Part shown: positions 13,739 to 54,941 of the stretch, in pieces
How positions within the stretch are numbered: position 1 is the stretch's first letter
Layout of the letters: the number at the start of each line of letters is the position of its first letter
Assembly (NCBI GenBank): GCA_950097015.1
Contig: CATNEN010000001.1
Location: 3,472,001 to 3,536,000, forward strand
DNA from: Macrostomum hystrix
Lineage: Eukaryota; Animalia; Platyhelminthes
Length of the DNA: 64,000 nt
Direction of reading: 5' to 3'
Translations under genes and position numbers: made by a program
The notes under the pieces: model-generated
Database searches by the model: none
The model's input: the letters and a program-made list of their open reading frames with translations, nothing else
Told to the model about the DNA's origin: nothing

Positions 13739-13786
13739 CTAAAATTAAGTTTTTAGCAATATGTAAATCAAATGTCTGTCACATAC

Positions 13787-16121
13787 TGATGTGGAGTGTG
13801 CTGCGGGAATCGAGTGGGAATGTGAGCCAGCATAATTTTTCGAATTTTTAAGTAACTAATAATTGCGACCCACATAGCAGCTGGTCACAAAACAAGATCA
13901 TTAATCTTAGGGCCGGGTTTGAGGCGGCGGTGAATCAAGTAGCTGCCGAATCCTCTCTCTCCGGAGTTGTCTAGACTCCCCGTAGGAATGACTGATCGCG
14001 GCCATAATGTTACTGTATGAACTAGTCTAGGTCATAATTCCCCTCCAAACCGCGATCAGATATAGGGGCTCACTCACGCGTTATGAGTGATCGTAAAATT
14101 CTTCATGTCCTCGCTTCTTTACCGTATTCGAGTCCAGCTCGACTTTTATGACCTCCTTCCTTTAGATACATGTAAATATCACTGTAGGCAGGTCGGCGCC
14201 TGCGCTTCCATTGTCCCGGCGGAGTAACAATCGCTGGCTGACTGCCGACGGCTGTTCGCGCAGAACATCTGTCGTTTCCCGCCGCCGGTTCATTGGGAAA
14301 TTGGGGCGGCAGTCGCCGCTTCAATCCCTCGATGACAGGCTGGCGCGAATGTGGGTTGCTTTGATGGATGTCGGGGTTGGCGTGCTGCAAGGCCTATTTA
14401 AGCAAGCGCGCGGCGCTGCTCCCTCAAAAAAACCTTTTTGCTTCGGACCCTCTTTCTCCCACCGGCTCTTCCCTTTCTCCCCTGCCGGACTTACTTTTGC
14501 CGGGCCGGACTCCCACCGGGCCCAGGACTTATCCCCCAGACCCATTTAGGGCATAGACCCTCGAGCTTATAGCTCCGCAGTTAGCGCAGGCCAATTGCCT
14601 GTTCCCATCCCTTAAGCGCAAGCCACCTCTTTAGGTGAGCTGTTAAATTGAGCCTTGAGCTCCAAGCGTGTTGGCCCCTTGCCGACTCGCAGCATCTTTC
14701 CCTTCCCGGCTTTTGCTATTTTACCCCATCCCCTTCCCCGAGATCGACGGGATTGCAGCACGCGGCTGGAGCATCCAGATAAGTAATCCGCGCAGCGGTT
14801 TGCAATTATTGCTCCTAAGGGGCTTTCTATTAGTTAGGCGGCATTTAGTGGGAGGAAGCTAGGAACTTTTTTCGCCTAATAAACTATCTAATCTAAGCAT
14901 TTTTACTTATTGGGCTTAACTTTATAACAACTTAATTTCTTTTATTATGTCTCCTTTTCACCTTTATTTTAACCTTAGACAGCCCTCTACCATGAGTGGC
15001 TAATCTATTAGGGGAATGGGCTCTGGCACAGCCGAGCTGAAAGCTGCGGCAGGAAGGCAATTGTAAGCGCGCATGAGAGTAATATGGAGCTAGGGATTTG
15101 CAAGTAAAATGCGGAGTGTAGCACGTGTTTTCTTTCTGCCCAGGGGTGGGGAATTCCCTGGCGGGTTTTCCTCGTTTCCTAGCGGAACTGGGAGTGCGTG
15201 TCAGGCTCCCCTGCCAATTGAGTTTCCCTTCCGTTCCCCCTCCCGCTTCCACCGCCAGGGAAGCGGGGGGTGATGATCTTTTAATCTTACGCTCGCATAA
15301 TCACTCAGCCAGTGTTCAGCTTAATCTCTCCTGCCTCTGTTTTCCTCAACTCACACAGACCGGATTTGCTAGTTATCTAATGTGTAGGCTGCAGTCTAAT
15401 GTACCGAATGTGTCTGATGTTTCATGAGTAGGACTCTGGCTAGGGATTTCGCTTTCAGGTTCGGAGTACCACCTCTCTAGACCACTGTAGCGCAAATTCA
15501 GGAATGCCCTGGTGAGGCGTGTCTCGATCCATTCTGGGGTCTTCACCCTAGTCTAAAACGGAAGTTACAGAAGGCTCTATTTTTTCGGCTTGTCTAAGAT
15601 CTGTGTGACAAACTAGGAGCCGCGAGCTCCGGGGACCCAAGTTCCCAAATGTCTGCGGTGGCCACGTAGGCGCATTGGGTGGTGGCGCTACCTTAGATCA
15701 TTTTCCGCTTTGCCGATAGCCTTTCCGCATTTCTAAGACAAGAGCCTAGGCCGAGTCGACCACTGCTACCGAGTTTAGGGGTCAGTTACGAACATGCTAC
15801 TGATGACAGTAGGCTGCATAGCCCTGTCCTATCCGTCTGCGGGTAGTCCGACATCTATTTAGACTTTTAGCCGGTTTCGAGCACTGCTTGGGGTAGGCAC
15901 GGCAGTCATGCCTGTGGCCTATGGGTTGAGTGGGACTGGCCAGCCTGAGGCCGAGAGGACCACTCCCTGCATCCACTGTCTCTCCCTTCATCTCTCCCTT
16001 CATCCCTCTTTCCGCGGCAACTCGCGAACCTTTGCGGTATGACTTCCGACTCTATCGCCATCCCCACACTCCTTTCCTTCACGAGGACAGATCATCGGAT
16101 TGCAAACCCGCAGCTATTTCA
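13787..16121 (+). repeat. 5' LTR (2335 bp)
   Basis: TGATGTGG...GCTATTTCA. The ORF translations inside it match those of the 3' copy. TATTTAA at ~14395 and AATAAA at ~14878. Confidence 0.96.
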
Positions 16122-16122
16122 A

Positions 16123-16142
16123 TGGTGGCATCGAGGTGGGAT
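16123..16142 (+). promoter_or_regulatory. Primer binding site, tRNA-Leu-like
   Basis: TGGTGGCATCGAGGTGGGAT begins 1 nt after the LTR and resembles the Leu-tRNA PBS TGGTGGCAGCGGTGGGAT. Confidence 0.8.
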
Positions 16143-16508
16143 CTAGAAAGGGCGCGAAACGAACCTGAATTTATTTCAATTGTTAGTTAAGCGCCGCAGA
16201 TTTCTGTGGCGGTTAGCCGTAAGGGCTTCTTCTAGATTTCATTATCCGTATGCCGGAATCTTATCTCTGGAGACTGGACTTCAGTTCCGAGTAACTGTCA
16301 ATTAATTCTCTTCGAACAGTTTCAATTTGATTCGGACTTTAATGTAAGGTTTTGTTAGAGTTTCTAAAAATTCTGATTAGTGACTTTCTACTATGAGTAG
16401 GCTGTGTGAGTGGACTTCATGCTAGAGTGTCTTCGGGTTATGTGGCTACTGCAGGAGTCGGGGACTGTCTGCGGGGTTTTCCTGCGTGATTGTTCTAGGC
16501 GAGGGTAA

Positions 16509-17037
16509 TCTAAACGGAGTAACCGGGCTCTAAGCCACGGACCCCTAAGCCGAAGCGAGGCTCCAGATGTAAAATACCTGGACTTCCCAGCCTTGTAAAT
16601 CGCAGAGGCGAAGCCCCTGGCCACCCCCCCCAGGAAGGGCCCTCTGAGCGAATCGGGGATTAGCTTTTCCTTGGGCGTCGCGCAAGGCCCGTTCTCATGT
16701 TCCTGATTCTGAAGGTGCCACGTAGCTTTGACTAAGTCTAACTTATGGGCGGAATAGTTAAGGGTCGGGACCCTGAGGGAGTCTAAGGACGCCCGTGCCC
16801 GCGCCCTGAAACTGCCGACCTTGGGGATAGGCTAGAAATCGGTCGGCATGTCCTTTTCTAAGAAGCTCTCTGAAGGGTGGTCTAAACGCAGTAACCGGGC
16901 TTTTGCCCTACGGACTCCTAAGCCGAAGCGAGGCTCCAGATGTAAAATACCTGGACTTCCCAGCCTTGTGAATCGCAGAGGCGAAGCCCCTGGCCACCCC
17001 CCCCAGGAAGGGCCCTCTGAGCGAATCGGGGATTAGC
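16509..17037 (+). repeat. Duplicated ~156-nt structured segment in the 5' leader (16509-16664 and 16881-17037)
   Basis: Near-identical direct copies containing nested inverted repeats. Confidence 0.9.
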
Positions 17038-17485
17038 CTTCTTTGAGTAACTTATTGAAGTCGTGTACTTTCCAAGGTAGGGCGATAGGCTGCTGCAGGC
17101 GCAGGCTGGCAGTAGTACTGGCCCCGCCGTACCTATAGTGTAACAGTCCGCTATAGGGTTGCTGAATGAGTGCTAAGTTAAAACCTAGACTCCTATGTCC
17201 CAAGTTCGAGTGCGCGCAAGCAGTTGTCGGAAGCCAAGGCTGGAAGTAGAGCTAGCCAGGGCCCCGGGCCCTTTCTCTCTCCCATCAGTTTTTCATTTAT
17301 CGCTTTATCGGCCGCTGCATCGCAGTCTTTGTTCGCTAGGGCCGGTTTTTTTTTCAATTGCTTATTCTCCGCGGCCACTGCCGTGTGCAGCACCCCGCTT
17401 AGCCCATTTTTTTCTCATCCCCAGTGTGGCTTTAGCGACAAACTCCCTCTTAACTCGCAAAATCCTCATTTCCTCTGTGGCCAAC

Positions 17486-18559
17486 ATGTCTGACCAGGAG
17501 GATGAGGTGGTGGAGGCTGTTGGCAGTGCCCGCCCACCGAGAGGCCGCGCTGCAGCTGCAGCGCGAGCCGAACCCCCAGCAACTGCGGCAGCCCAGCCGG
17601 CAGACCCAGTGGAGCGCCTAGCCTCCCTGATGGAGCGTTTAGAGCCGCGGCGGGCTAGGACCCACCGAGTAAAAATTGCTTTAGAACCGTTCGAGTCGGC
17701 GAAGGACTCTTTTCCCCGCTGGCTGCGCAGGTTTAATTTGAAGGTCGAGGCCGAGGGTCTTGAGACGGAGGAGGAGAAAATCCTCACCCTCCTGGCTCAC
17801 TTAGGGGGCGAACCCTTGACCCAGGCCATGAGCCTACCGCGCCGAGTGACCTACCCGCGGTTTGTGCAAGATCTGACCGAGGCCCTCAGCGGCGCCTGCA
17901 CACCCTATGCCCGGCTCCTTAGCGGGCGCAACCTTAAGCAGGACAGAGGCGAGTCATACGCCTCGTTCGCTGACCGCCTGCGATCTGTGGCCACCCAGGT
18001 CAACCCCAATGGCCGCGGCCCACCCTTTGAACAAGCCCTCCTGGCCTCCTTCCTAGAAGGTATCACGGCCCCCCCGGAGGTGTTGGCGCCCATGATGCGG
18101 ATGGAATTCGCCACGGTAGAGGCGGCTGCCGCTGAGCTGCGCGCCGCCACCCAGGCATTCGAGATGGCCGCTGAGCGCGACCCCCGTCGCCGAGTGCGCC
18201 AGGTCAGGGCCGGGCTAGCAGAGGAGCAAGAACCCCCCGGCGAGATTCAAGCCGTCCGCCGTGAGCAGCAGCACTTGGCCCAGGAACTGGCCAAAGTTTC
18301 CCAGCAGCTCGCGGAAGTCACGCGGCAGCTGCGCGAATCACAGCCAACCCCGGCCCGCCCGCCTCATCCGCACCCGTCCGGGCACCAGTGGTACCCCAGG
18401 GTAGCAATAGGGCCGCGCAGGAAGCACCGTGGAAACTACGCCGCGGGAAACGGGAGTGGGGCCGCCGACTGGAGGCAGCCCGATTATCCGGAGGCGCCTC
18501 AGGCAGCTCGGGCGATCGAGGCCCCCCCGTTGATGCCTCCCCCATCAAAGTCCGAGTGA
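17486..18559 (+). CDS. gag: Gag polyprotein (357 aa), Ty3/gypsy capsid-like
   Basis: ATG in CCAACATG context. Motifs FPRWLRRF...LLAHLGG and LKQDRGESYASFADRLRS (major-homology-region-like), plus a coiled coil. Confidence 0.88.
   Translation: MSDQEDEVVEAVGSARPPRGRAAAAARAEPPATAAAQPADPVERLASLMERLEPRRARTHRVKIALEPFESAKDSFPRWLRRFNLKVEAEGLETEEEKILTLLAHLGGEPLTQAMSLPRRVTYPRFVQDLTEALSGACTPYARLLSGRNLKQDRGESYASFADRLRSVATQVNPNGRGPPFEQALLASFLEGITAPPEVLAPMMRMEFATVEAAAAELRAATQAFEMAAERDPRRRVRQVRAGLAEEQEPPGEIQAVRREQQHLAQELAKVSQQLAEVTRQLRESQPTPARPPHPHPSGHQWYPRVAIGPRRKHRGNYAAGNGSGAADWRQPDYPEAPQAARAIEAPPLMPPPSKSE
18445..18500 (+). promoter_or_regulatory. -1 programmed ribosomal frameshift signal (G GGA AAC plus downstream stem/pseudoknot)
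   Basis: The heptamer is in the correct gag phase and a -1 shift enters the protease frame (GKREWGRRLE...). A GGGCCGCC/GGCAGCCC stem lies ~6 nt downstream. Confidence 0.75.
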
Positions 18560-18990
18560 ATTCACTCGGCCGAGTCCCCACCCGAGTGCGCACCCGCCCC
18601 AACCGCTCTGAGAAGCTCAGTGAGGTGTGGGTCGCCTTGGAGTTGGACGGGGCACCCCTTGACCTTCTGATCGACACTGGGTCTATGGTCAATGTGCTTC
18701 CGGGCTCGTTGTCATCCATCATCTCCCATTATCATTTCGACCCCCCTCAATTTTCTTTATTCGCATATAATGGCACCCCTATAATTGCACAGGCGCAAGT
18801 CAAAGTCAAATTGCAGGTTGGCGCCGAAGCGTTGGACACGCTATTCTTAGTGGTCGAGGGCGACTGCTCTCCCCTTCTAGGCGCCTCCTGGTTGGCTCAT
18901 CACCACGCCATCCTCGATTTTGACTCGCGCCAACTAATCATTTACAACCAGTCTATTCCCTTCTCGCTCAGGCGGAAGCCTGCCTTTTAG
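18445..18990 (+). CDS. pro: Retroviral-type aspartic protease in the -1 frame, ending at a stop with no RT following
   Basis: LLIDTGS active site and SPLLGASWL motif. Confidence 0.9.
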   Translation, partial: GKREWGRRLEAARLSGGASGSSGDRGPPVDASPIKVRVNSLGRVPTRVRTRPNRSEKLSEVWVALELDGAPLDLLIDTGSMVNVLPGSLSSIISHYHFDPPQFSLFAYNGTPIIAQAQVKVKLQVGAEALDTLFLVVEGDCSPLLGASWLAHHHAILDFDSRQLIIYNQSIPFSLRRKPAF

Positions 18991-19121
18991 GGCTGAGGAA
19001 CTCCCCTCCCCTTTCCTTCCCCCCCTCTCCCCCCCTTGGGGATATTTAGACTGGAGGTTAGTGGAGGAGCCGGGAAGTCTAGAAGGGACGCAGTCAGTTC
19101 AGTTTAACAAGGATTGTCGAC

Positions 19122-19691
19122 ATGGCTGGCCTGAGCATCACTGTGGCCTGGTGGCTGGAGACGGTCGCCACCGACTATCGGCGAGAGTTGGCCGGCAAGA
19201 ATACCTGGATTATGGTCCGCCTGTGGCTACTCCCTGCGTTGGGCCGTGCGGCACAGGCCGGAATCGATCTCGCCCTGGCATGCAGGCTAGCCGAAGCCCG
19301 GTGGTTGGCGCAGGCATGGGTCGAGGAACGGGACCCGAGCCCGCCAAGAGGTGAGGACGAGGAGACCCTGCCTTGGAATGTCCGGTGGCCGCATTACTGT
19401 CCGCCAGAAGACTGGGGCATGGCGGTGCCCGAAGCCCTCATGTCCTGGCTGCAGGCTACCCGGATACCTGGCAGGTGGGATCTCGAGCACCAGCTGGTGG
19501 GAGAGCTGGTTGGTGAAGCCGTCTGGAGGCAATCTTCCGGACTAGCCTCTACACCATGGCATAGCTGGGCAGTGGACGCGTCAACCATCGAGGAGACGCC
19601 ACCAGGCGACAGCACGCTCGGCCGCATGGTGAGACAGATTGAAGGTGATAGTGGGGACATAGCGGAGAGTACGCCCATTAAGGAAGAATAG
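19122..19691 (+). CDS. Orphan Trp-rich ORF3 of the LTR element (189 aa)
   Basis: GACATGG start context and a long GC-rich open frame at the position normally held by pol/env; no known domain recognised. Confidence 0.55.
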   Translation: MAGLSITVAWWLETVATDYRRELAGKNTWIMVRLWLLPALGRAAQAGIDLALACRLAEARWLAQAWVEERDPSPPRGEDEETLPWNVRWPHYCPPEDWGMAVPEALMSWLQATRIPGRWDLEHQLVGELVGEAVWRQSSGLASTPWHSWAVDASTIEETPPGDSTLGRMVRQIEGDSGDIAESTPIKEE

Positions 19692-20764
19692 GAGGATGGG
19701 ATCTTAGAATCCGAATGGAGCATGATAATGCGCGAGGATACCTATGGTAAGCCCTACCCGCCAAATCTTTCCCTTGTTCTCCCCATCCTTTTGCCCTTTA
19801 TTAACAGCTCGCACCGCGCACCTTTTGTTTTTCTTCCTACAGTGCATGCTTTTCCCTCCTCTCATTTAAAAGCCGTCTTGGCACAAAATTTATTCTAAAA
19901 ACTCTTATAATTTTTAGTCAAAAACCCAAAAACATACATATTGGGGCGAAACTCCCCTGGTAAACTTTTCGCTTGAGATAATTTCTAACTGCAGCAGTCT
20001 AGGGCGCGCACCCTTCTTTTCTCAAACATTTAAAATGACTCGCACCACATTGTGAATGGCACCCTCTATATCGCTTTGTTTCGGGTGGGCCGTGGAGTTG
20101 GTTCATCTGGGGACAGATTTCTATATTAGGAGGGATACCAACCCGCCAAAGTGAGCGGGGTGGTATGATGGGCACTCTAAGTTTGGGATGGGGTGGGTGT
20201 TTGAACCGGGAACTGGCAGGCTTTTAGCTCAGGTTGAGGGGAGTTTTCGTATTGGTTTAGAAGGCAGTGGGCATTTCAATGGTGGCTCCTTTTCTAAGGG
20301 AGGTGAGAAGTGACTGTGAGGCACCGCGAAAAGGACAGGGTTGTTTACGTAGATGGATCAACTGGATTGCGGGCACCTAAGCAAGCCTCTCTGTTGTAAC
20401 TTTTCGATTAGTTCCATGTCCACCTTATTATTATTGAGGGGGCTCGCTTTAGATGTAAACTGGGAATGACGCGTTGTTCTTTAGAATTCTCTAAGCATGA
20501 ATAGCACCGATCTGTTAAATCAAGGAAACCAGCCAGAAATCATGTAATCAGCACACGCCACCACTTCTCCTTCGGAATGGGTGTATTATTAAGAACGTAT
20601 TTACGCATTTTTGGTCGAAACCAAATGGTGAGCAAGACATGCATCAAAAAAAATAAGCAATAGGGGCGGGGGAAATAAGCATTGGGATTATGTACTGTGG
20701 CTCTGGGGTCAATGTCTTTGTAAAAAAAACCCCAGAGCCCGTCCTTTCCGGCCTCCCGTCGCCT

Positions 20765-21477
20765 TCAGCGGCGCTGGCGGAGGTAGGCGGCCATCAAGGC
20801 CCCCGCGACGGCCAAGAGGCCGGCCGCAGCGATTGGGCCGATTATTCCTGTCAGGACAGTTTCCCCAATGTCGCGCACGGCCTGCACGAGATGGCCGGGC
20901 GCCACGTCAATATCTGTGGAAGATGGAATGGGTTGTTTTATGAAGAAGTGGGTAGTTGAGCAGCTGCGGCTGGGGGTGAATGCAGGGATTCAGTGATTCC
21001 GTTCGAATAATATTTCACTGGTGGCTAATTCAGGATGAGAGGCAAGGTTGGATTACGGCGACTTACTAATAGCGAATTCTACGCGCGCAGGTGGCTGCGG
21101 TCCGACATCTCTGGAAGTAGGAGGGCAGGACGGTGGTAATCAATCACGGTGAGAGCAAATTCGCGAAATTTTTTATACAAATTAAACTCGATCTAATGCT
21201 AATTTAGGATTTCACTGGGATTTCTCAACTTAGCGGGCCGAGGGATCTGGGTTCGGGTTAAGATCAGTCATAGATAAGAATCGGGTTGGGGGTGCCGGGA
21301 ACTGCTATAATTACCCTAGTTAGTCTAATTATTATTCAATCATTTTAATCGCCCCTCAATAACCGGCCTTGGGAGGCCGAGTAGAAGCAATATAACTCAC
21401 CTTTCTTCTCCAGGCAGCTGCAGGGCCGGGGCTGGCACCTCCGCAAGCGGAATGATGGCGGAGCTTGTTATGCGCAT
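20765..21477 (-). CDS. Antisense 3-exon gene (21477-21401, 21110-21067, 20913-20765) encoding an 89-aa protein with a C-terminal transmembrane helix
   Basis: AAAAATG start; GTGAGT and GTAAGT donors; pyrimidine-rich CCAG/ACAG acceptors; all phases compatible; ends VLTGIIGPIAAAGLLAVAGALMAAYLRQRR*. Minus-strand TATAAATA at 21909-21902. Confidence 0.7.
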
Positions 21478-22052
21478 TTTTACTGCAGCACCGATGGAAC
21501 CGCGCGCAACGCCTCGGCAACCAGCCCGGCGAACATTCTCGGGCACGGCCAGCCGTGAACACCTGGCGCGCGGCAAATCAGAGGCCACCAAGGCCCGGCA
21601 GCAGGATCGGCCAGGGCGCAAATGGGCTGAACAACCTGGACCCACCTGGAGAGAGCACGGCCGGACCCCTCGGACTCAAGGCAAGACGGCCGGGGCCTCC
21701 CAGGATTGCGCAACCGAGACCAAGCCGGGCAAGGAGGACTGGGACGAGCGGCAACCGCCTGGAGAGGAAAGCGAGCCGGGACGAGGCACCCCCTGGGCAA
21801 CGAGAACAACATCGCCGCGACCGGAATGCGCACCCACCTCCCCTCAGGACTCTATCCCTTAGTCGCTAGGGGCGCCGACCGTTTTGACTCTCGCACCAAT
21901 CTATTTATAGCCGTACGTACGTACGCATTAGGGTTTCTTCTCTAGCGGAATTCTTCCTAGGGTTCTCTACGGTATGTTGTAGGTTTTTTTTGTCCCCTCG
22001 ATTCTCGAGACACCCCGCTACTACTGTCAGTAGGCACGTAAGTGTCTTACGT

Positions 22053-22072
22053 GAAAGTGAGCGAAGGTGGAG
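22053..22072 (+). promoter_or_regulatory. Polypurine tract
   Basis: GAAAGTGAGCGAAGGTGGAG abuts the 3' LTR. Confidence 0.75.
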
Positions 22073-24407
22073 TGATGTGGAGTGTGCTGCGGGAATCGAG
22101 TGGGAATGTGAGCCAGCATAATTTTTCGAATTTTTAAGTAACTAATAATTGCGACCCACATAGCAGCTGGTCACAAAACAAGATCATTAATCTTAGGGCC
22201 GGGTTTGAGGCGGCGGTGAATCAAGTAGCTGCCGAATCCTCTCTCTCCGGAGTTGTCTAGACTCCCCGTAGGAATGACTGATCGCGGCCATAATGTTACT
22301 GTATGAACTAGTCTAGGTCATAATTCCCCTCCAAACCGCGATCAGATATAGGGGCTCACTCACGCGTTATGAGTGATCGTAAAATTCTTCATGTCCTCGC
22401 TTCTTTACCGTATTCGAGTCCAGCTCGACTTTTATGACCTCCTTCCTTTAGATACATGTAAATATCACTGTAGGCAGGTCGGCGCCTGCGCTTCCATTGT
22501 CCCGGCGGAGTAACAATCGCTGGCTGACTGCCGACGGCTGTTCGCGCAGAACATCTGTCGTTTCCCGCCGCCGGTTCATTGGGAAATTGGGGCGGCAGTC
22601 GCCGCTTCAATCCCTCGATGACAGGCTGGCGCGAATGTGGGTTGCTTTGATGGATGTCGGGGTTGGCGTGCTGCAAGGCCTATTTAAGCAAGCGCGCGGC
22701 GCTGCTCCCTCAAAAAAACCTTTTTGCTTCGGACCCTCTTTCTCCCACCGGCTCTTCCCTTTCTCCCCTGCCGGACTTACTTTTGCCGGGCCGGACTCCC
22801 ACCGGGCCCAGGACTTATCCCCCAGACCCATTTAGGGCATAGACCCTCGAGCTTATAGCTCCGCAGTTAGCGCAGGCCAATTGCCTGTTCCCATCCCTTA
22901 AGCGCAAGCCACCTCTTTAGGTGAGCTGTTAAATTGAGCCTTGAGCTCCAAGCGTGTTGGCCCCTTGCCGACTCGCAGCATCTTTCCCTTCCCGGCTTTT
23001 GCTATTTTACCCCATCCCCTTCCCCGAGATCGACGGGATTGCAGCACGCGGCTGGAGCATCCAGATAAGTAATCCGCGCAGCGGTTTGCAATTATTGCTC
23101 CTAAGGGGCTTTCTATTAGTTAGGCGGCATTTAGTGGGAGGAAGCTAGGAACTTTTTTCGCCTAATAAACTATCTAATCTAAGCATTTTTACTTATTGGG
23201 CTTAACTTTATAACAACTTAATTTCTTTTATTATGTCTCCTTTTCACCTTTATTTTAACCTTAGACAGCCCTCTACCATGAGTGGCTAATCTATTAGGGG
23301 AATGGGCTCTGGCACAGCCGAGCTGAAAGCTGCGGCAGGAAGGCAATTGTAAGCGCGCATGAGAGTAATATGGAGCTAGGGATTTGCAAGTAAAATGCGG
23401 AGTGTAGCACGTGTTTTCTTTCTGCCCAGGGGTGGGGAATTCCCTGGCGGGTTTTCCTCGTTTCCTAGCGGAACTGGGAGTGCGTGTCAGGCTCCCCTGC
23501 CAATTGAGTTTCCCTTCCGTTCCCCCTCCCGCTTCCACCGCCAGGGAAGCGGGGGGTGATGATCTTTTAATCTTACGCTCGCATAATCACTCAGCCAGTG
23601 TTCAGCTTAATCTCTCCTGCCTCTGTTTTCCTCAACTCACACAGACCGGATTTGCTAGTTATCTAATGTGTAGGCTGCAGTCTAATGTACCGAATGTGTC
23701 TGATGTTTCATGAGTAGGACTCTGGCTAGGGATTTCGCTTTCAGGTTCGGAGTACCACCTCTCTAGACCACTGTAGCGCAAATTCAGGAATGCCCTGGTG
23801 AGGCGTGTCTCGATCCATTCTGGGGTCTTCACCCTAGTCTAAAACGGAAGTTACAGAAGGCTCTATTTTTTCGGCTTGTCTAAGATCTGTGTGACAAACT
23901 AGGAGCCGCGAGCTCCGGGGACCCAAGTTCCCAAATGTCTGCGGTGGCCACGTAGGCGCATTGGGTGGTGGCGCTACCTTAGATCATTTTCCGCTTTGCC
24001 GATAGCCTTTCCGCATTTCTAAGACAAGAGCCTAGGCCGAGTCGACCACTGCTACCGAGTTTAGGGGTCAGTTACGAACATGCTACTGATGACAGTAGGC
24101 TGCATAGCCCTGTCCTATCCGTCTGCGGGTAGTCCGACATCTATTTAGACTTTTAGCCGGTTTCGAGCACTGCTTGGGGTAGGCACGGCAGTCATGCCTG
24201 TGGCCTATGGGTTGAGTGGGACTGGCCAGCCTGAGGCCGAGAGGACCACTCCCTGCATCCACTGTCTCTCCCTTCATCTCTCCCTTCATCCCTCTTTCCG
24301 CGGCAACTCGCGAACCTTTGCGGTATGACTTCCGACTCTATCGCCATCCCCACACTCCTTTCCTTCACGAGGACAGATCATCGGATTGCAAACCCGCAGC
24401 TATTTCA
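22073..24407 (+). repeat. 3' LTR (2335 bp)
   Basis: Copy of 13787-16121, followed by TSD ATAC. Confidence 0.96.
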
Positions 24408-24599
24408 ATACTCACATGAACTATTTACCTACACTTCATTGGCAAACTATATATTTTTGGAGTCTATAGGCATGTCAAGTAATACCATATTATAGGGCCA
24501 CAAAATGGTCAAGTTAGAAAATCCAAAACTGTAACATGTCACCATTGCTATTAATAGGAAAAAGCATAAAAAATTCATGAAATACAATTTCGAATTCTT

Positions 24600-25810: not shown

Positions 25811-28800
25811 TCAGGGTGGTCCGTCGGTCGGTTCCGCCGCGCGATCTTCCTCGCCATAGGCTGGGAAGAAATCAGCTCGGCCGGTATCCCGGAGGAAGTG
25901 GGCGAGCTGAGGGATGTTCTCGGGCGAGCAGGCTTCGGCAAGAGTCGGTGCCGGCCCGAGGTGTTTTAGCCTAGCCCGGGTGAAGGCCGGGCAGTGGCAA
26001 ATGAAATGCTCGGCGTTTTCACGGCCGGAGCAGCAGAAAGGACACGTTTCCTCAGGCACGTGGCCTTGGAGGTAGCGGTGTCTGGTGAAGCAGCCATGTC
26101 CCGAAAGGGCCATGGTGACTGCTCTCAGGTCTCTGCGGTTTAGCCTGAGTAAGGCCTTACGCAGGTTACTAGAGGGGGTTGGCACCGCAGCCCTGGACTG
26201 GCGACAGTTCAGGGTGCTGGACCACCTCCTCCGGTGCTGGGTCTCCATCCAGTGGTTGATGCTGGAGTTGACAACGGAGGCGGGGATCGGGGATTCCGGG
26301 CCCGGGCCCATCAGGGAGCTGGCTGCTCCAGCCTTTGCAAGCTCGTCCGCCATCTCATTCCCTGTGAGCCCGGCGTGCCCAGGGATCCACATCAGCTCCA
26401 CCTTGTTAGACTGCGCCAAACCGTTTAACTGGGTGTTGCAGTCCAAGGTGGTTCTGGAGCGAGAGGTGCAGCGACTGAGGGCCTTGAGGGCTGCTTGACT
26501 GTCGGAGTGAAAAAAGATCCTCCGACCAGCCAGCTGCCTCTGGCGCAGCTCAGCCGCACAGAAGCTGATGGCGAGCATTTCGTTTTGGAAAACGCTTGAG
26601 CTCTTGCCACAGTGTTGGGAGTGGGTCCAGAGGACCTCGCCACCCGAGGCGACGCACACCCCGAATCCCGATTTACCGTTCATCAGGGAGCCGTCAGTGT
26701 AACAGTGGACTGCGGGGTCATCCCAGCAGTCCTTTACCTCATTACGAGGGAAGATGCTGACTTTGTACCTGTGGCTCCGGAGTAAAGTGGCCGGGGCCCC
26801 GTCCGAAAGGATGGTGAGCCCTCCGCACTCGCCCAGAGTTTTCAGGCAGAGGTCAGAGTGGGGCAGAAGGGAACGCTTCGAGAAGGCTCGCGAATTCTGG
26901 AAGGATACACCCGCATCAAGGAGACGACGGGTGGACTTTGCCGCTTCCCCCTTAACAAAAATGTCAATGGGTGTAGCGTTGAGGAAAGCGTTCATGCCTT
27001 CAAAGGGAGTGGAGGGTGGGGCGCCCAGCGTCATGCGACAGGCTCTGCCCTGCACCCTATAAAGCGCCTCCAGGTTTTTCTGGATGCTCATGGCACTGGC
27101 CCAGATGAGGCCAGCGTAAGCGACTGACGGTCTAATGATCGCCGTGTAAATCCACCAAAGGTTTTTGGGGGTTAGCCCCCAAGTGGTGCCCACGGCTCGC
27201 CTGACTTGCGCCAGAATGGCCAGGGCCCTCTTGGCCTTTGTGGTAATGTGCGGGGTCCAGTTAAGCCTATGGTCTAGCAGGATACCAAGGCACCGGACCT
27301 GCTTTTCCATGGCAATATTCTTGCCATAGAGAGTCAGAGGCTCAATGGTCCAGCGCAGCCTGCTGGTAAACATAACCGCAACGGTCTTGGACTCAGAGAG
27401 TCGGAGCCCGCATTGGTCCGCCCAGCGCACCGCCCTGTTGATAAAGCCCTGAATGAGGTCCCTGGTGGTTTCCGCCGAGGGGCCCGCGCAGATGGCGGTC
27501 ACATCGTCGGCATATCCCACCTTCAGGACTGGGTCAGGCCGAGTGCTTTTTAGCAGCTCATCCATGACGAGATTCCACAGCAGTGGGGTGAGGACGCCAC
27601 CTTGGGGCCCTCCTTTTAGGACAGGTGCCGAGAGCACCCTGCCTTCGAGGTGGGCCACCACGTGGCGATTCCGGATCATGTACATGACCCAACGGACGAG
27701 GTGGGGGTGAGTGGCCCTGGAAACCAGGGCCTTCTCAAAGGCTTCGAAAATAACGTTATCGAAGGCCCCCTCAATATCAAGGAAAACAGCCAGGGCAAAA
27801 CCGCTGCCCAGCACTGCCTTCTCGAGAGTCTCCACAATGCAGTGGAGGGCGCTCTCCGTGGACCGGCCCGCCCGAAAGGCGTGCTGGTTTGGTGAGAGCG
27901 GGGCCCGCCCTAGCTCTACAGTAAGAAGGCGCCAGAGCACCAGTCTTTCCATGAGCTTGAGGCAGGTGGAAGTCAAGCTTATCGGGCGATAAGACTTGAC
28001 CGAGCGATAGTCGCCTTTGGCGGGCTTCGGGATGAAGACGACCCGGGCTTCATGCCACCGCGCTGGTACGTAGCCCAGCACGATGCAGGCCCGTAGAAGT
28101 CTGCAGAGGAGATGGAGGAAGCGGCCATTTTTAACCGCTTCATGCAGAAAGGCCGGATATATACCATCTGGCCCAGGTGCTTTAAAAGGATTGAATGACT
28201 TAGCCGCGCGAACGATGCGGTCATTCGTAACGAGTGACTGAGCCAGGCCCTGACCTCCACGCGAGTGGTCGTCTGGGCCGAAGTGCGCCGGTACACTCGG
28301 GAAGAAATGCCCTAGCATAAGCTCGAGCGTTTCCTCCGGGCGCTCAGTGATCGAGCCGTCCGGCTTTTTAATCGATGAGAGCTTGGAGAAGCGGTCGTTG
28401 GTGAGCGCCTTTACCACGCGGGCCGTGGGCCGCGAGCCCTCAAGCCCTTCGCAGTATTGTCGCCACTTGTCCGCTTTTGCCCTTCTGACCCGGCCCTTAA
28501 ACTCATGGATGGCGCGAGTATAGGCCTCTTTGTCATCAGGGTCGTGCGAGGTTTTCAGCTTCCTCTGGAGAGCCTTAGCTCGGCGTCTTAGGACTCCGAG
28601 CTCGGGGTTCCACCAGGGGGCCGATTTTTTGCCTTTGTAGGCTTTGAGCGGGCAAGCCATTTCGTAGGCCTCTGTGATGGCGCCGCCCAGCAGGGCAGCC
28701 ACTCCATCCAGGTCCTGCGTGGTTTCCATGGCCATGGAGGGGTCAGAATCCCGAAGGCCCTCATGCAGCTTTTGGCTGAACGCGGGCCAGTCGGTATTTC

Positions 28801-29515
28801 TGACATTACGCCTCCAAATAGGCTTTTGCTTCTTATCGGGGGTGCCGATGTTGAAACGGATGAAACGGTGGTCCGAGAGCGAGCTTTCGGTCTCCCACAC
28901 CTCCCACCCCAGCACCCTTGGGAGGATGCCGGGTGAGGCCAGGGTGACGTCAAGCACCTCAGCCCACCGCCCATTGTCGAAAGTGGGCGTGTTGCCCACA
29001 TTGCAGAAGTTTAGAGGCGTGCCGCTGACGAAGGCCAGGAGCTCTTCGCCGCGGTCATTGATTTTTGAGCTACCCCAGTGGGTGTGATGCGAGTTTACAT
29101 CTCCCGCGAGGAGCAGCTCGAAGTTTCGTGCCCTGGCGAATTCACAGAGGGCGACGAGGGTATCGCTAACCACGGGGGCGTCGCCTGCCAGGTAGGCGGA
29201 TGCCACGAGGGTCAACTTGTTAGGCACAATGTGTGCAGATTGGATGACGCAGATGTCCCCGTTAGAGAGATCGGGTCTCATCCACGCATTTAAGGCTTTT
29301 GCGGCATAGATCAGTGATCTAGGGCGGACAGAGTCTGCCATGCAGAAGCAGTCATAGCCAGCAGGAATGTTGCTTGGCTTGTTCTTTGATAGCCAGGGCT
29401 CCTGCACAAGTACAAGGCCCGGCATCATGCGCTCTGTCGTGCGCATCAGATTGACTGATGCTGCCACGCAGTGCTGGGTGTTAACTTGCAGACATGATAT
29501 TCCGGGGATCATCAT
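25811..29515 (-). CDS. LINE ORF2: AP endonuclease, reverse transcriptase, RNase H and CCHC finger (1234 aa)
   Basis: APE motifs LVQEPW, GDVN, SDH; RT motifs YRPISL, PQGGVL, YADD; RNase H motifs YTDGS, SDSQAAL, WIPGH...GNEMAD; finger CPFC-x8-H-x4-C. Confidence 0.97.
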
Positions 29516-29527
29516 GCAGGCAGAGGT

Positions 29528-31075
29528 CTACTTGGAGGGGGACCCAGCCAGAAGGCGGTCCTCCTCCTCCGGGTCGATGTCGGTAGCCATGGGCTCCTCC
29601 GTGCCCAGGCCCCGAGCCGGAGACGGGAACTCGACGGCGTCAGCCGCCCAGTCCCCGCCCCCGGCCCCGAGCCCAGGCCCAGAGTCGCCCTCAACTGGAG
29701 CCGACACCGCTCCCTGGGCCGTGGGAGGGGCGCTCGAAGGGCCCTGCTCGATGGAGCTGGGCACCTCTGAGGCCTCCCCCGTAGCCCTTGGTTGCGGCGC
29801 CTGCCCCGGTGGGCCACCGCGCATCTCAGCGCGCAGCTGGGCCATCTTGGCGGTTCGCACCACCTCGGAGGCCCGCTGGAGAAGGCCCCGGCGCTTTGTG
29901 ACACGCGCGGGGCGACGCTCAGAGCTGCCAGCGATGGCACGCTCTGGCCTTTTTTGGCGGGACGACTGGGCCCTGCCCCCAGTCCCAGCCTTGGGGTCCG
30001 AGGACCCTTCATTGGCCGGTACGGTGGTGGGCCCGGTCTGACCTCGGGTTTTATCCGCCTCGAAGGCGAAGATTTTGGTCTTCCACAGACCAATGCAAAT
30101 GTTGGCGCCATCTGGGTAGCGGCGTGTCCATTGCTCGGACAGGCCCAGAATGGCGGTGAAACCGGTGCCGTCGGGGCGCAGGATCGTGCGGTGCACGATC
30201 AGGCCCGCTGTCGGCAGCTCCCGGTTCATCGCGATGAGGCCCCTGCGGAGGTCCTCAGCGCTGGTGACGACACTTTTCGCCGGGACGAAGATACGGTGTC
30301 GCTTGGTCTTTGGTGGCTCGTTCTCCCGTAGGAACTCGAGGCCAGCCGCCCAGCTCTGCGTGGGCAGCAACTCGAGGAGCCGCCGCCCCGATTCCGCATC
30401 GCCGGGCCAGACGACGAAGCACGATTCCCTGGTAGCGCTTGCGCCGACCGCCAGGGGCTCGCCCTTCAGTTGAAGTTGCCACAACATAGCATCTATGTTG
30501 CGGCAAATGTCGCTGAGCTGTTCGCTGCTCAGCCTTTTCCCGTCTCTGCCGGTGATGATGACGGCAGGTTGCCTACGTGCGATGGCGGCGTAGGTAGCTT
30601 GTGGTCCCGGGCCCTGTCCGGTGGCGTCCCCACCCTCGGGATCTGCGTCGGCGGTGGGCACAGGGCCCTCCGCCTCCGCTTCTCCTTCGGGCCGGGCAGC
30701 CGTCCGGATGGGCGCCGGGCCCTCCTTGGCCCGCGACCCTGGCCTCGGGGCGTCGTGGGCTCCGCCCCGTGCAGGAGCCTGGGCAGGAGGCACAAGGCCC
30801 CCCGCCCCAGCCCCCGCCCTAGGCAGAGCCCCTTCGGCCCCTCTGGCCTGGGCCTGGTCCTTGGTCAATGGAGCCGACGTGCCGTGGGCCAGCATGCGCC
30901 TACGGCGTTTTGCCGCTCCAGAGGTGGTGGAGCGCTTAGCGCCCCGGTCATCGCGCGAGTTGGGCAGCGCGGCATTTGTGGCGGTCGCGGGGCCAGCTAG
31001 CCCGGGCGCCGCAGCGTGTATGGCCTCAGGCACCATGGTGTCCTCGGCCGGAGCAGTTGAAGGGCTAGAAGCCAT
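29528..31075 (-). CDS. LINE ORF1 (~515 aa; disordered ends, central DUF4780-like globular region, no CCHC knuckles)
   Basis: Long ORF ending 12 nt before the ORF2 ATG; first ATG at 31075. The DUF4780 likeness is from memory of LOA-clade ORF1s and was not searched. Confidence 0.85.
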   Translation of the reverse strand: MASSPSTAPAEDTMVPEAIHAAAPGLAGPATATNAALPNSRDDRGAKRSTTSGAAKRRRRMLAHGTSAPLTKDQAQARGAEGALPRAGAGAGGLVPPAQAPARGGAHDAPRPGSRAKEGPAPIRTAARPEGEAEAEGPVPTADADPEGGDATGQGPGPQATYAAIARRQPAVIITGRDGKRLSSEQLSDICRNIDAMLWQLQLKGEPLAVGASATRESCFVVWPGDAESGRRLLELLPTQSWAAGLEFLRENEPPKTKRHRIFVPAKSVVTSAEDLRRGLIAMNRELPTAGLIVHRTILRPDGTGFTAILGLSEQWTRRYPDGANICIGLWKTKIFAFEADKTRGQTGPTTVPANEGSSDPKAGTGGRAQSSRQKRPERAIAGSSERRPARVTKRRGLLQRASEVVRTAKMAQLRAEMRGGPPGQAPQPRATGEASEVPSSIEQGPSSAPPTAQGAVSAPVEGDSGPGLGAGGGDWAADAVEFPSPARGLGTEEPMATDIDPEEEDRLLAGSPSK

Positions 31076-39925: not shown

Positions 39926-40658
39926 ACCTGAGTTTGAATCATGGCTAAACCATAGTCTGAATCATGGCTAAACCAGAGTTTGAATCATGGCTAAACCAGA
40001 GTTTGAATCATGGCTAAAGCAGAGTTTGAATCATGGCTAAACCAGAGTCCGAATCATGGCTAAACCAGAGTTTGAATCATGGCAAAACTGGAGTTTGAAT
40101 CATGGCTAAACCAGAGTTTGAATCATGGCTAAACTAGAGTTTGAATCATGGCAAAACTGGAGTTTGAATCATGGCTAAACCAGAGTTTGAATCATGGCTA
40201 AACCAGAGCTTGAATCATGGCTAAACCAGAGTTTGAATCATGGCTAAACCAGAGTCTGAATCATGGCTAAACCAGAGTTTGAATCATGGCTAAACCAGAG
40301 CTTGAATCATGGCTAAACCAGCGTCTGAATCATGGCTAAACCAGAGTTTGAATCATGGCTAAACCAGAGCTTGAATCATGGCTAAACCAGAGCTTGAATC
40401 ATGGCTAAACCAGAGCTTGAATCATGGCTAAACCAGAGTTTGAATCATGGCTAAACCAGAGCTTGAATCATGGCTAAACCAGAGCTTGAATCATGGCTAA
40501 ACCAGAGCTTGAATCATGGCTAAACCAGAGTTTGAATCATGGCTAAACAAGAGTTTGAATCATGGCTAAACCAGAGTTTCAATCATGGCTAAACCAGAGC
40601 TTGAATCATAGCCAACCAGAGTTTGAATCATAGCCAACCAGAGTTTGAATAATGGCAA
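39926..40658. repeat. 23-bp minisatellite array A (CCAGAGTTTGAATCATGGCTAAA)
   Basis: About 31 tandem copies upstream of RepHel; an inverted degenerate copy lies in intron 4 (~44636-44740). Confidence 0.96.
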
Positions 40659-41143: not shown

Positions 41144-44100
41144 ATGGTTCGACGCGGCGCCAGCAGTTTAAAGAAGAGCCGCGATGCCAAGCGACGGCGA
41201 CAGGCAGAATCCGAGGCAGAGCGGGCTGCCCGACTGGAAGAACAGCGGCAGCGGAATGCTCAGTGCAGACATGCTGAGACTGAGGCAGAGCGGGCTGCCC
41301 GACTGGAAGAACAGCGGCAGCGGAATGCTCAGTGCAGACATGCTGAGACTGAGGCAGAGCGGGCTGCCCGACTGGAAGAACAGCGGCAGCGGAATGCTCA
41401 GTGCAGACATGCTGAGACTGAGGCAGAGCGGGCTGCCCGACTGGAAGAACAGCGGCAGCGGAATGCTCAGTGCAGACATGCTGAGACTGAGGCAGAGCGG
41501 GCTGCCCGACTGGAAGAACAGCGGCAGCGGAATGCTCAGTGCAGACATGCTGAGACTGAGGCAGAGCGGGCTGCCCGACTGGAAGAACAGCGGCAGCGGA
41601 ATGCTCAGTGCAGACATGCTGAGACTGAGGCAGAGCGGGCTGCCCGACTGGAAGAACAGCGGCAGCGGAATGCTCAGTGCAGACATGCTGAGACTGAGGC
41701 AGAGCGGGCTGCCCGACTGGAAGAACAGCGGCAGCGGAATGCTCAGTGCAGACATGCTGAGACTGAGGCAGAGCGGGCTGCCCGACTGGAAGAACAGCGG
41801 CAGCGGAATGCTCAGTGCAGACATGCTGAGACTGAGGCAGAGCGGGCTGCCCGACTGGAAGAACAGCGGCAGCGGAATGCTCAGTGCAGACATGCTGAGA
41901 CTGAGGCAGAGCGGGCTGCCCGACTGGAAGAACAGCGGCAGCGGAATGCTCAGTGCAGACATGCTGAGACTGAGGCAGAGCGGGCTGCCCGACTGGAAGA
42001 ACAGCGGCAGCGGAATGCTCAGTGCAGACATGCTGAGACTGAGGCAGAGCGGGCTGCCTGACTGGAAGAACAGCGGCAGCGGGATGCTCAGCGCAGACAT
42101 GCTGAGACTGAGGCAGAGCAGGCTGCCCGATTGGAAGCCGATCGCATTCGTCGCCGTGGAGCTGTGGTTTCTATGTGAGTTTTATGGCCGTTTTATAACA
42201 AGTCTTTATTTTTGTTTTTTCTGACTTGCCTTGAAGGGGATAATTTGTAGTATCCATTTTATTCTGTATAAATTAAGCGGACAACGATTTTTGAGGAATG
42301 AATTGTCTTAAAAAGCCAATTAAGGCTGCTGTGCTTACGTTCACCCATTGCCCCTTAGGTCGGACACACAGCAGCAAGGTACAGAAGCTATTGTACCCTT
42401 TGAGCATTTGCAGGTAATCCCCATTGTTGGTGATGGCAATTGCTTTTTTTATGCTGTGTGTGATCAGCTGCGTGGAACCCCGCTGGAAACTGACGCAGCC
42501 TCCCTGCGGCAGGACTTGTCTTGCCGTGTTGCAGAACTCATGCCACAGCTGATTGCAGATGGCCTCATTGCACCTGAGAGTGCTGATGAGATCGTGAATT
42601 CCTCTTTTCAAGCAGGAATTTATGTTTCAGATGAAGTTGCCTCTTTGTTGAGCCGCTGCTTTGATGTGGATCTGGTCATTTACCAGGCCAATGGTAATGT
42701 GATGCAATATTTCAGGGCTAATTTGCGCCCTCCTAATGCCATTGTGCGTGTGCTTTTGCGCCATGAACATTACGAGTCACTGAGACTTCGAGAGCCTTTG
42801 CAAGCCTTTACAGATGCTGAGTTCCCAAGCCTGGCAGCAAGCAGAACTCCTGCCAAGAAGACCAAAAAGGCCAAGGGCCCCAGCGCGATGCCGGCGGAAC
42901 ATGAGACTGCGGGCCGCGCTGAAGACGGACCCGCTACTGCAAGGTAAACTGACACACAATTAACAGTTACATTTACATTTAACAGTTACTAAGAGATACA
43001 TTCCATTTTTTATCAGGCCTGAGACGATGGCGAGGCCAGAAGCTCCAGCCCATGACTGCGGGCCAATGGACTGGGCATGCAACCATTGCGGTGCCAAGCT
43101 GTTCCGCATGGAGACAGGCAATTTCTGCTGTGCTGGCGGCAAGGTGAAGCTGCCCACCCGGACTGTGCCACAGCTGCTGGCTGACCTGTACATGGGCCGG
43201 CATGGCATGAGCTCAGAGTTCCTGACCAACATCCGGAGCTATAACTCTGTGCTGCACCTGACCTCGCTGAGTGCCAAGCCGCGGTTGGTGCCAGGCTGGA
43301 ATCCCAGCTACATCATCAGCGGTCAGCTGCACCACACTGCTATGCCGCTGTTTGCTGAAGCGTCTGCTGTTCCTCGCGGCTGGCAGGTGTACTTCACTGA
43401 CCGCGAACTCGAAAGCCAGCAGAGTCTGAGCGATAGGGTGAAGCCAGAGCTACAGGAGCTGCTACAGACGTTGCTTCACGAGTGCAACCTTTACGTTCGG
43501 AGCCTGAAGGCTGCAGCACAGCGGATCATGGAGGATCCGGAGCTTGTGGATGCGCGAATCGTGATTCACCCGGACCGGAGGCCTTCTGGGGAACACATTC
43601 GGTGAGCTAACAATAACTGAAAAGGGATTCGAACACATTTTAAAACCTGTATTTTAAAGCTTTGTGCCTGTGTACACAGAAATGTTTACCGTTGTAAAGA
43701 GTTTTGTTAAAAGCATTTGTTACTACCGTTCAAAATCAGGCGCTACAATTTGCCCACGGCAAACGAGATCGGCATCCTCATTGTTAAGGACACTGAGGAC
43801 ACTGAGGCCCCTGAAGACGGTGATGAGCCAGCAACTAGCCGAGATGTTGTCATTCAACTGCGGGGTGGCGGCTACAAGAGGATTAGCAAAACACACCGAT
43901 CGTATGATGCACTGGAGTACGTGTTGCTGTTCCCCCATGGCGAGGACGGCTGGCACCCGGAGCTGCGCATGGGCAATGGCCGCAAGCTGACGCCGATGAA
44001 GTACTATGCCAGCGAAATCATGGTGCGAGCGGGCCAGAGCAGCCTGCTGCACCACGGACGGCGGCTGTTCCAGCAGTACCTGGTGGACATGTGCGCCAAG

Positions 44101-47100: not shown

Positions 47101-48115
47101 TGCCTGTCGTAGTGAATGGAACCCGCGCCAACAGCGTCATGGCGTGTGTCTGCAGATCTTCGCTGTGGAAACTTTTCAAGCGACAACGCTTGACGAGAAA
47201 CATTCGTCTGCTGTGCAGCTCCGAGCCAGCGATATACCAGAAGTTCACGGAGCTACTCATGCAGGTGAGAATGGGGTGTAAAAATCCTTTTTTCTCGCGA
47301 ATCATTGCGAATATTTTTTTTTCATGTTTTTATTGCTTTTCTTTTCACAGATCGGAACCGGGACAATCGAGCAGGATGCTGAGGAGAAGGTGTCCCTTCC
47401 CGCTGAGATGGTGATTTCTGCAGAGGCTCCGCTGAATGACCTGATCAAGTTCGTGTACCCGTCGTTTGAAGAATCAGCGGAGCGGGACGACTATTTTGCA
47501 AGTCGAGCGATACTGGCGCCGTACAACGACTCTGTTGATGCCATCAACGAGACGTGTCTGGGCATTTTCCCGGGTTGCCTGCGAGAGTATCGCTCTGTAG
47601 ACAGCCTGGCTGATGAGGAGGCCGCTACGCATTTCCCGACGGAGTTGCTAAACCAGCTGGATGCCCCGAATTTTTCAACTTATCTGCTCAGGATCAAGGT
47701 GGGCATGCCGCTGGTGCTTCTTCGGAATATCAACCCGCCGCGGCTGTGCAACGGTACACGGCTCATCGTTCTCACGATGGGCGATAATGTGCTGCGCTGC
47801 AAGATTGCCGCCGGTCAGTTCACCGGAGACGAGATCCTGCTGCCGCGAATTCCGCTGATTCCAAACAATGCGGATCTACCAGTGAGTTTCAAGCGGCTGC
47901 AGTTTCCGGTGAAGCCGAGCTTCTGCCTTACAATACACAAAGCACAAGGACAATCCCTGGAGACCGTTGGAGTTGACCTGGCTGTCGGTTGCTTCACTCA
48001 TGGTCAGCTGTACACGGCGCTGTCACGGGCGAAGAACGCCGCGAATGTTCGCGTCCGGATCTGTGGCACCAAGACCAGAAACGTGGTGTATCCAGAAGTG
48101 CTCACTGGAGATTAG
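41144..48115 (+). CDS. RepHel: Helitron RepHel, 9 exons (41144-42174, 42359-42943, 43017-43601, 43740-44536, 44821-45163, 45359-45677, 45761-46782, 46868-47264, 47351-48115), 1947 codons with one premature TGA at 42059
   Basis: Exons sum to 5844 nt and are all phase-compatible. OTU GDGNC...HY; Zn finger CNHCGA...CC; Rep motifs FVTATCNP, EYQKRGLPHVH, KYVIKY; PIF1 motifs DAPAGTGKT, WDEISM, GDFRQL, TIHKAQGQSL, YTALSR. Confidence 0.93.
41207..42136 (+). repeat. 69-bp coding repeat (23-aa STPR-like ETEAERAARLEEQRQRNAQCRHA), ~13.5 copies
   Basis: Period of 69 bp (41221 to 41290), almost perfectly homogenised. Confidence 0.95.
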
Positions 48116-48418
48116 GCGATTTCCAGGCGTCATTGAAGTGAGTATTACTTGTGTCATTTTGTCTGTGAGTGTCGCATTGGTATCTGTGTTTAATAGTGAT
48201 CACAAGTAGTTTATCCTGATATGTAAATGGCCCGCTGAGACATATCAGGCAAATCCTGCTTTATTCACCTAATAAATTCAAATGAGATGGGATCATAATG
48301 GAATTGAGATCAGGGATTACCTAGGCAAAATGATTAGCTAAATTGTGTTCATTGCATAACAGAACTGAGATTGTTGCTTAGCTAAATTGTGTTTGTGGCA
48401 TAACAGAACTGAGCATAA

Positions 48419-53787: not shown

Positions 53788-54941
53788 AACCAGAGTTTGA
53801 ATCATGGCAAAACCAGCGTTTGAATCATGGCTAAACCAGATTATGAATCATGGCTAAACCATCGTTTGAATCATGGCTAAACCAGAGTTTGAATCATGGC
53901 TAAACCAGAGTCTGAATCATGGCTAAACCATCGTTTGAATCATGGCTAAACCATCGTTTGAATCATGGCTAAACCATCGTTTAAATCATGGCTAAACCAT
54001 CGTTTGAATCATGGCTAAACCAGAGTCTGAATCATGGCTAAACCATCGTTTGAATCATGGCAAAACCAGAGTTTGAATCATGGCTAAACCATCGTTTGAA
54101 TCATGGCAAAACCAGAGTTTGAATCATGGCTAAACCAGAGTTTGAATCATGGCTAAACCAGAGTCTGAATCATGGCTAAAACATAGCTTGAATCATGGCT
54201 AAACCATCGTTTAAATCATTGCTAAACCAGAGTTTAAAATCATGGCTAAACCAGAGTTTGAATCATGGCTAAACCAGAGTCTTAATCATGGCTAAACCAG
54301 ATCTTGAATCATGGCTAAACCAGAGCTTGAATCATGGCTAAAACAGAGCTTGAATCATGGCTAAACCAGAGTCTGAATCATGGCTAAAACATAGCTTGAA
54401 TCATGGCTAAACCATCGTTTGAATCATTGCTAAACCAGAGTTTAAAATCATGGCAAAACCAGAGGTTGAATCATGGCCAACCAGAGTTTGAATCATGGCT
54501 AAACCAGAGTTTGAATCATGGCTAAACCAGCGTTTGAATCATAGCTAAACCAGCGTCTGAATCATGGCAAAACCAGAGTTTGAATCATGGCTAAACCAGA
54601 GTTTGAATCATGGCTAAACCAGAGTTTGAATCATGGCTAAACCAGCGTTTGAATCATGGCTAAACCAGAGTTTGAATCATGGCTAAACCAGAGATTGAAT
54701 CATGGCTAAACCAGAGTCTGAATCATGGCTAAACCAGAGTTTGAATCATGGCTAAACCAGAGATTGAATCATGGCTAAACCAGAGTTTGAATCATGGCTA
54801 AACCAGAGATTGAATCATAGCTAAACCAGAGTTTGAATCATAGCTAAACAAGCGTCTGAATCATGGCCAACCAGAGTTTGAATCATGGCTAAACCAGAGT
54901 TTGAATCATGGCAAAAACAGCGTCTGAATCATGGCTAAACC
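53788..54941. repeat. 23-bp minisatellite array B (same unit as array A)
   Basis: About 50 copies between the divergent Zn-knuckle and RPA-like genes. Confidence 0.96.

Follow-up and report, generated by a model that had tools for sequence, protein, structure and literature searches.

An LTR retrotransposon of Macrostomum hystrix that appears to lack a reverse transcriptase (RT) of its own probably carries, on its antisense strand, a spliced accessory gene for an 89-aa microprotein with a predicted membrane anchor. That an antisense, intron-bearing gene occupies the slot between pol and the 3' LTR is statistically well supported, and we place the probability that it is a genuine antisense accessory gene at about 0.7; for the full reading, in which such a gene additionally encodes an intracellular tail-anchored protein, the odds appear to us about even. 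All positions given below refer to the window, the whole 64-kb stretch of DNA that was analysed.

The element spans positions 13787-24407 (~10.6 kb), with the predicted antisense gene inside it. It is flanked by a 4-bp target-site duplication read from the sequence (ATAC; 13783-13786 and 24408-24411) and bounded by two plus-strand LTRs of 2,335 bp (13787-16121 and 22073-24407) with TG..CA ends, whose identity to each other implies a very young insertion. A sequence resembling a primer-binding site (PBS) begins with TGG one base past the 5' LTR (16123-16141, plus strand) and may resemble tRNA-Leu, and a purine-rich tract resembling a polypurine tract (PPT) adjoins the 3' LTR (22051-22072, plus strand). 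In the leader between PBS and gag we also observed a 167-bp direct repeat whose copies (16502-16667 and 16874-17040) are 93% identical. The language-model features of the gag product (17486-18559, plus strand; frame open from 17195) lie nearest to PNMA/Retrotrans_gag clusters of the Atlas (best score 0.94) and closest to molluscan ones, and a large protein search confirmed none of 7,996 candidate homologues. A retroviral-type aspartic protease is encoded in the -1 frame (18265-18990, plus strand, stop at 18990), which contains a DTGS motif and matches PF13975 with an E value of 4e-4, below the curated cut-off. A G GGA AAC heptamer that conforms to the slippery-site consensus lies in gag phase (18445-18451, plus strand), with a stem-loop behind it, at the site of a predicted -1 frameshift into the protease frame; the phased heptamer and stem-loop together (18445-18520, plus strand) suggest that the Gag-protease frameshift may be intact in an element without RT or integrase.

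The place of RT is occupied by ORF3 (19122-19691, plus strand), a Trp-rich frame of 189 aa whose start is the first ATG to follow the strong acceptor site at 18971; no homologue was found among 517 candidates, and its structure model is poor (pLDDT 39.8). A strong donor/acceptor pair follows ORF3 at 19747/19842, and contigs from public sequencing runs bridge this pair unspliced. Matches to RT, RNase H or integrase families were found neither in the 35 internal stop-to-stop frames nor in gag, protease and ORF3, while a neighbouring LINE did match; the original prediction's description of an RT-less LTR retrotransposon therefore holds, its LTRs and target-site duplication having been verified as well. 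The presence of LTRs, target-site duplication, PBS, PPT, gag and protease and the absence of RT, RNase H and integrase give the element the make-up of a GAG/PROT-only retrotransposon. The non-autonomous TR-GAG/GAG-PROT elements likewise combine LTRs, gag and protease without these three enzymes, as far as the available sections of PMC13570524 go, but were described there in plants, whereas the element analysed here looks animal in its Gag features and has two extra genes. In the run contigs we also encountered a more diverged, deeper related family that matches 17050-17274, 20119-20260, ~21650-21990 and the LTR and may be a helper or sister family.

The LINE just mentioned (25811-31075, minus strand) is apparently intact, with two ORFs and endonuclease, RT and RNase H, with a 52-bp repeat (24709 and 25527) flanking one of its sides. 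Elsewhere in the window lie intron-split frames (41144-48115, plus strand) that we take, from their translations, to be of the Helitron-like Rep/helicase type, with a 69-bp coding repeat in front of them and candidate splice sites resembling those of the antisense gene model. There are also a presumed RPA/OB-fold-like gene (55494-56582, plus strand), again judged by its translation, and tandem satellite arrays of 31-bp and 23-bp units (48264-51500, 39968-40607 and 54038-54816).

Every coordinate of the original gene model could be reproduced, from the promoter motif and start through the introns and exons to the 89-aa product. On the minus strand, a TATA box, TATAAATA (21902-21909), is the candidate internal antisense promoter and precedes a presumed 5' UTR (21478-21870; GC 0.67, without codon periodicity). 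The 77-nt coding part of predicted exon 1 (21401-21477) opens with AAAAATG at 21477 and is followed by predicted intron 1 (21111-21400, 290 nt, GTGAGT...CTTCCAG), predicted exon 2 (21067-21110, 44 nt), predicted intron 2 (20914-21066, 153 nt, GTAAGT...TTCCACAG, with a CACAG end), for which an alternative in-frame acceptor ends at 20970, and predicted exon 3 (20765-20913, 149 nt), which encodes an amphipathic helix, a weakly hydrophobic helix, RQRR and the stop. The nearest minus-strand AATAAA past this stop, a candidate poly(A) signal, lies at 19889-19894, and a second one at 19802. The predicted unit, antisense to gag, fills the gap from ORF3 to the PPT between the 3' LTR and the pol position, where pol consists of protease alone, and its frame, splice sites, TATA box and AATAAA are intact. 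Upstream ATGs at 21812 and 21536, between TATA box and start, open uORFs of 110 and 18 aa, both of which end at a TAA (21482-21480) two bases before the predicted start codon; neither these ATGs nor the overlapping sense-strand intron described below figured in the original prediction. A further strong minus-strand pair, donor 22050 and acceptor 21759, was noticed; a transcript initiated within the 3' LTR could have a 5' UTR intron here, and its splicing (22050-21760) would take out both the TATA box and the 21812 ATG. Directly after the predicted stop codon lies a perfect stem of ~11 bp (arm GGCTCTGGGG; 20693-20740, minus strand).

Strict splice rules (GTRAG donors and acceptors with at least 12 of 14 pyrimidines), whose thresholds were set after the model had been seen, leave this gene model as the sole two-intron chain on both strands of the whole 64-kb window; the minus strand of 13787-22072 offers 10 GTRAG donors and 5 strong acceptors. 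Block shuffling of 19692-22072 produced a two-intron chain in 21 of 800 cases, an ORF of at least 60 aa in three (1/400 and 2/400 in two sets) and an ORF model with a C-terminal helix in none (0/400 in each set), while shuffles of the longer stretch 13787-22072 gave 60 chains, 8 ORF models and again no C-terminal helix in 240 cases. Since the strict thresholds were post hoc, the rules were then relaxed: GTRR/10Y rules yielded two-intron helix models in 20 of 500 shuffles and helix plus basic tail in 9, and the loosest rules (GTR/9Y) yielded 96 and 44 of 500, respectively. In the real sequence, 17 of the 239 two-intron models allowed by the loosest rules end in a helix, all of them in the exon-3 frame; helix-like 19-mers number four in the six frames of 8.3 kb.

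Base composition was considered along with these counts. The coding exons have GC contents of 0.62, 0.57 and 0.67 against 0.43 and 0.48 for introns 1 and 2, and by codon position exon 3 is gag-like (0.77/0.50/0.79; gag 0.73/0.54/0.72). Its coding score under a codon model was matched or beaten in 17 of 2,000 shuffles, and 28 of 656 GC-rich non-coding windows scored as high. The plus-strand mirror frame of exon 3 scores 4.0 against 3.4 for the model frame, so that periodicity cannot fix the strand; the first half of this mirror frame is free of ATG codons, and the frame does not look protein-like. The codon signal of exon 2 is weak or absent (GC3 0.43, score 0.3), and the TATA box taken alone is weak evidence, with TATAAA arising in 572 of 4,000 shuffled flanks. 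A plus-strand ORF at 21452-21862, behind the sense acceptor, was discarded as a real gene on account of its flat codon-position GC (0.66/0.67/0.65) and lack of a Pfam match, some of its windows scoring up to 5.9.

The predicted protein starts with Met-Arg and is rich in Pro and acidic residues over its first 60 residues; ~59-63 residues precede a helix at about residues 60-85, and four residues, RQRR, follow it. Within the part encoded by exon 3, an amphipathic section leads into a Gly/Ala-rich hydrophobic section that forms the only hydropathy peak of the 89-aa product (2.15), and hence its single predicted transmembrane segment, while a hydropathy scan of exon 1 found no 19-mer reaching at least 1.9. 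The helix is marginal, with an unweighted sum of +1.4 on an insertion scale, and exon 3 is modelled as one long helix (residues 5-47, pLDDT 91.5), a score that lone helices attain easily. The tail-anchor topology proposed earlier fits these data, the single helix lying within ~30 residues of the C-terminus. A helix at the extreme C-terminus is expected to insert post-translationally and to leave the N-terminus cytosolic; a tail anchor would thus place the N-terminal 60 residues in the cytosol and not outside the cell. Basic C-tails divert tail-anchored proteins from the ER, and the combination of low hydrophobicity and a basic tail, which the ER insertase refuses, is carried by mitochondrial tail-anchored proteins, according to the sections available of PMC10200711; the product shares with these a low-hydrophobicity C-terminal helix and a short positive tail, a likeness of targeting signal only and not of homology.

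Homology searches with exon 3 returned one candidate, which received no score, and no usable Atlas match. Two matches among 1.84 billion representatives were rejected as repetitive proteins alike in composition, and a Pfam match to Gram_pos_anchor (E 0.31) was set aside as a reflection of the helix and basic tail. Pattern searches for related loci confirmed 0 of 313, 0 of 351 and 0 of 24 matches, and Rfam gave none. Because Gag likewise went unmatched in the large protein search, this blank says little.

To date, antisense extra ORFs between pol and the 3' LTR (aORF-3R) have been described in maize Grande (gene23), rice RIRE2, Silene Retand and Botrytis Boty (brtn), as documented in the available portions of PMC7264820, PMC11963269 and PMC8365987, the last of which names brtn only in its methods and in the title of a reference. 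The predicted gene has both slot and orientation in common with these genes (PMC7264820, same portions) and probably represents the same kind of antisense accessory gene, known so far from plant and fungal elements. Judging from the same partial sources, which do not confirm introns in brtn, gene23 of Grande has upstream of it an antisense promoter of its own, and non-autonomous members occur among the Retand elements. The aORF-3R products described there have a nuclear or DNA-binding-like character (TRP28, SMC) and are mostly encoded by ORFs longer than 600 bp, whereas the candidate here is an 89-aa membrane anchor whose predicted gene is split by two introns, in an element without pol enzymes. 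The antisense accessory genes hbz of HTLV-1 and asp of HIV-1 also lie at the 3' end, hbz being spliced and ASP a membrane protein, but hbz is transcribed from an LTR promoter without a TATA box and its product is a bZIP factor, and ASP has two helices and overlaps env; this is a likeness by description, taken from excerpts of PMC8156140. The accessible text of a paper on Macrostomum LTR elements (PMC12801592) mentions neither antisense genes nor introns. In the literature searched, mostly outside subscription papers, we found no LTR element described as encoding, antisense and in spliced form, a microprotein with a tail anchor. The planarian Burro elements reportedly have an antisense membrane-protein transcript. 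The portions consulted of PMC6431247 and PMC8532177 do not mention it.

Six public runs, none given as RNA, were listed as sharing sequence with the region, two of them with small shares and from other organisms. The four examined come from one study, are of unrecorded kind (RNA or DNA) and possibly include the source of the window itself; they were examined as contigs, which show presence only and leave strand and absence invisible. All four contain a joint that corresponds to a 265-nt GT-AG intron of the sense strand (21149-21413, plus strand) mirroring predicted intron 1; the depth of this skip was 19.2, 11.9, 13.5 and 9.6 in the respective runs, against 16.2, 12.5, 18.7 and 18.9 for the unspliced piece. 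None of the 8 joints listed in the four runs matches a minus-strand intron, which is to be expected if the runs are DNA. Across the splice points predicted for the minus strand the contigs run on unspliced, at 21401 and 20914 in four of four runs and at 21067 and 21110 in three of four, those whose covering piece was listed, and same-family contigs match the predicted exons without a differing letter. Should the runs be RNA, a part of the sense RNA is spliced at 21149-21413, and the contigs have kept no antisense splicing; should they be DNA, 21149-21413 has been precisely lost from some copies, and no antisense junctions would be expected at all. In either case the joint likely stems from splicing on the sense strand.

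The two introns, sense and antisense, mirror each other closely. The minus-strand donor GTGAGT corresponds on the plus strand to ACTCAC, immediately ahead of the polypyrimidine tract there; the plus-strand donor GTGAGA, in turn, appears as TCTCAC when the minus strand is read, 38 nt ahead of that strand's acceptor. We take both hexamers to be branch-point-like, and as the donor of each strand mirrors as such a motif, either intron might be a mere shadow of its counterpart. It is somewhat unlikely, in our estimate, that no antisense protein gene exists, that the signals of intron 1 mirror the real sense intron while intron 2, frame and helix arose by chance in GC-mosaic DNA, and that any antisense RNA is non-coding or regulatory. 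Such an account gains from a joint seen here on the plus strand only, in all four runs, from the mirrored motifs placed before the acceptor signals of the opposite strand, from the upstream ATGs and from the homologues not found. However, when 21105-21420 was held fixed and the flanks were shuffled (n = 4,000), the rest was seldom rebuilt: strict rules gave a two-intron ORF in 104 cases and a helix-ending one in a single case, and loose rules gave a helix with basic tail in 65, or 124 with one-intron models included. Given this rarity, the sense intron by itself leaves intron 2, the frame and the helix unexplained; the gag-like periodicity of exon 3, with a mirror frame that looks unlike protein, also speaks against chance. 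We read the sense intron as a probable side effect of signals that belong to the antisense gene itself. Quite unlikely is the capture of a host gene fragment, backwards and with its introns, as a passenger of no benefit to the element, even if gene transduction is a known source of extra ORFs (PMC7264820, available portions) and the sense skip deprives a considerable fraction of molecules of donor 1, which, were the runs DNA, would show that the gene is not needed in cis. The intact state of the frame and its signals and a unit that fills the gap from ORF3 to the PPT argue against a passenger, as does the want of a cellular homologue, although host proteins seem absent from the searched sets and Gag went unmatched too.

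The original prediction had also raised a non-env route of cell-to-cell transfer, which would be realised if the product were a small fusogen of the sORF2/FAST type, inserted N-out/C-in at the plasma membrane so that Gag particles pass between cells without Env. The sORF2/FAST-like fusogens are proteins of MDG1-group retrotransposons (bioRxiv 10.1101/2025.03.14.642691, available sections, also for the comparison that follows), and the product resembles them in its size (89 aa, within their range of 60-210 aa), its single transmembrane segment by hydropathy, the polybasic patch behind the helix (RQRR, with three Arg, where at least 3 K/R within 15 aa are called for) and the amphipathic motif just ahead of it. 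Unlike theirs, the predicted gene is antisense and spliced. Met-Arg stands where a fusogen would have the MGxxxS/T myristoylation motif, itself missing from 2 of 6 Drosophila sORF2s (10.1101/2025.03.14.642691), ~59-63 residues precede the helix where an ectodomain of 10-50 aa would be looked for, and the four-residue tail has no room for the amphipathic cytoplasmic motif carried by all sORF2s. The post-translational insertion generally expected of so extreme a C-terminal helix would, moreover, leave the N-terminus cytosolic, and we consider a fusogen very unlikely. The earlier proposal of an accessory gene in the env slot is supported in part, by virtue of slot and orientation, the shuffles and its likeness to a known kind, whereas the transfer function attached to it is poorly supported.

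The genuine accessory gene that we favour would be expressed at a low level or conditionally, in a young Gag-protease-only LTR element. Its internal TATA promoter near the 3' LTR would give rise to a minus-strand RNA from which both introns are removed and which receives its poly(A) tail near 19890. The antisense introns would persist because the sense RNA alone is reverse transcribed, by enzymes presumably borrowed from an autonomous partner. Removal of 21149-21413 deletes antisense donor 1, and in a copy derived from spliced sense RNA the frame, as read from the sequence, would be truncated to 22 codons. The helix lies so near the C-terminus that it would have to insert post-translationally, and its low hydrophobicity and basic tail would, by sequence rules, favour mitochondria or peroxisomes over the ER; the 89-aa protein would most likely reside in the mitochondrial outer membrane and act intracellularly, not as a fusogen. 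Its Pro/acid-rich first 60 residues and amphipathic helix could, more speculatively, form a cytosolic arm on which Gag particles or a host factor would dock. Silencing by animal hosts is docked on mitochondria. A bolder scenario, which we regard as unlikely, is that an animal LTR element without copying enzymes has retained an antisense gene, with introns, whose microprotein product is targeted to mitochondria and tethers particles or disarms host silencing, the first intron of the gene being two-way, spliced from both strands, and switching between copies with and without the accessory gene.

Antisense accessory genes of LTR elements are known, and function is settled for none of them; spliced microgenes evade annotation based on ORFs, and an 89-aa product is small enough for direct testing. 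If the minus-strand splice is real, the locus provides a natural case of one stretch of DNA serving as an intron on both strands. A membrane-anchored product kept by an element without RT or integrase would, if the reading is true, suggest that such cargo pays for itself.
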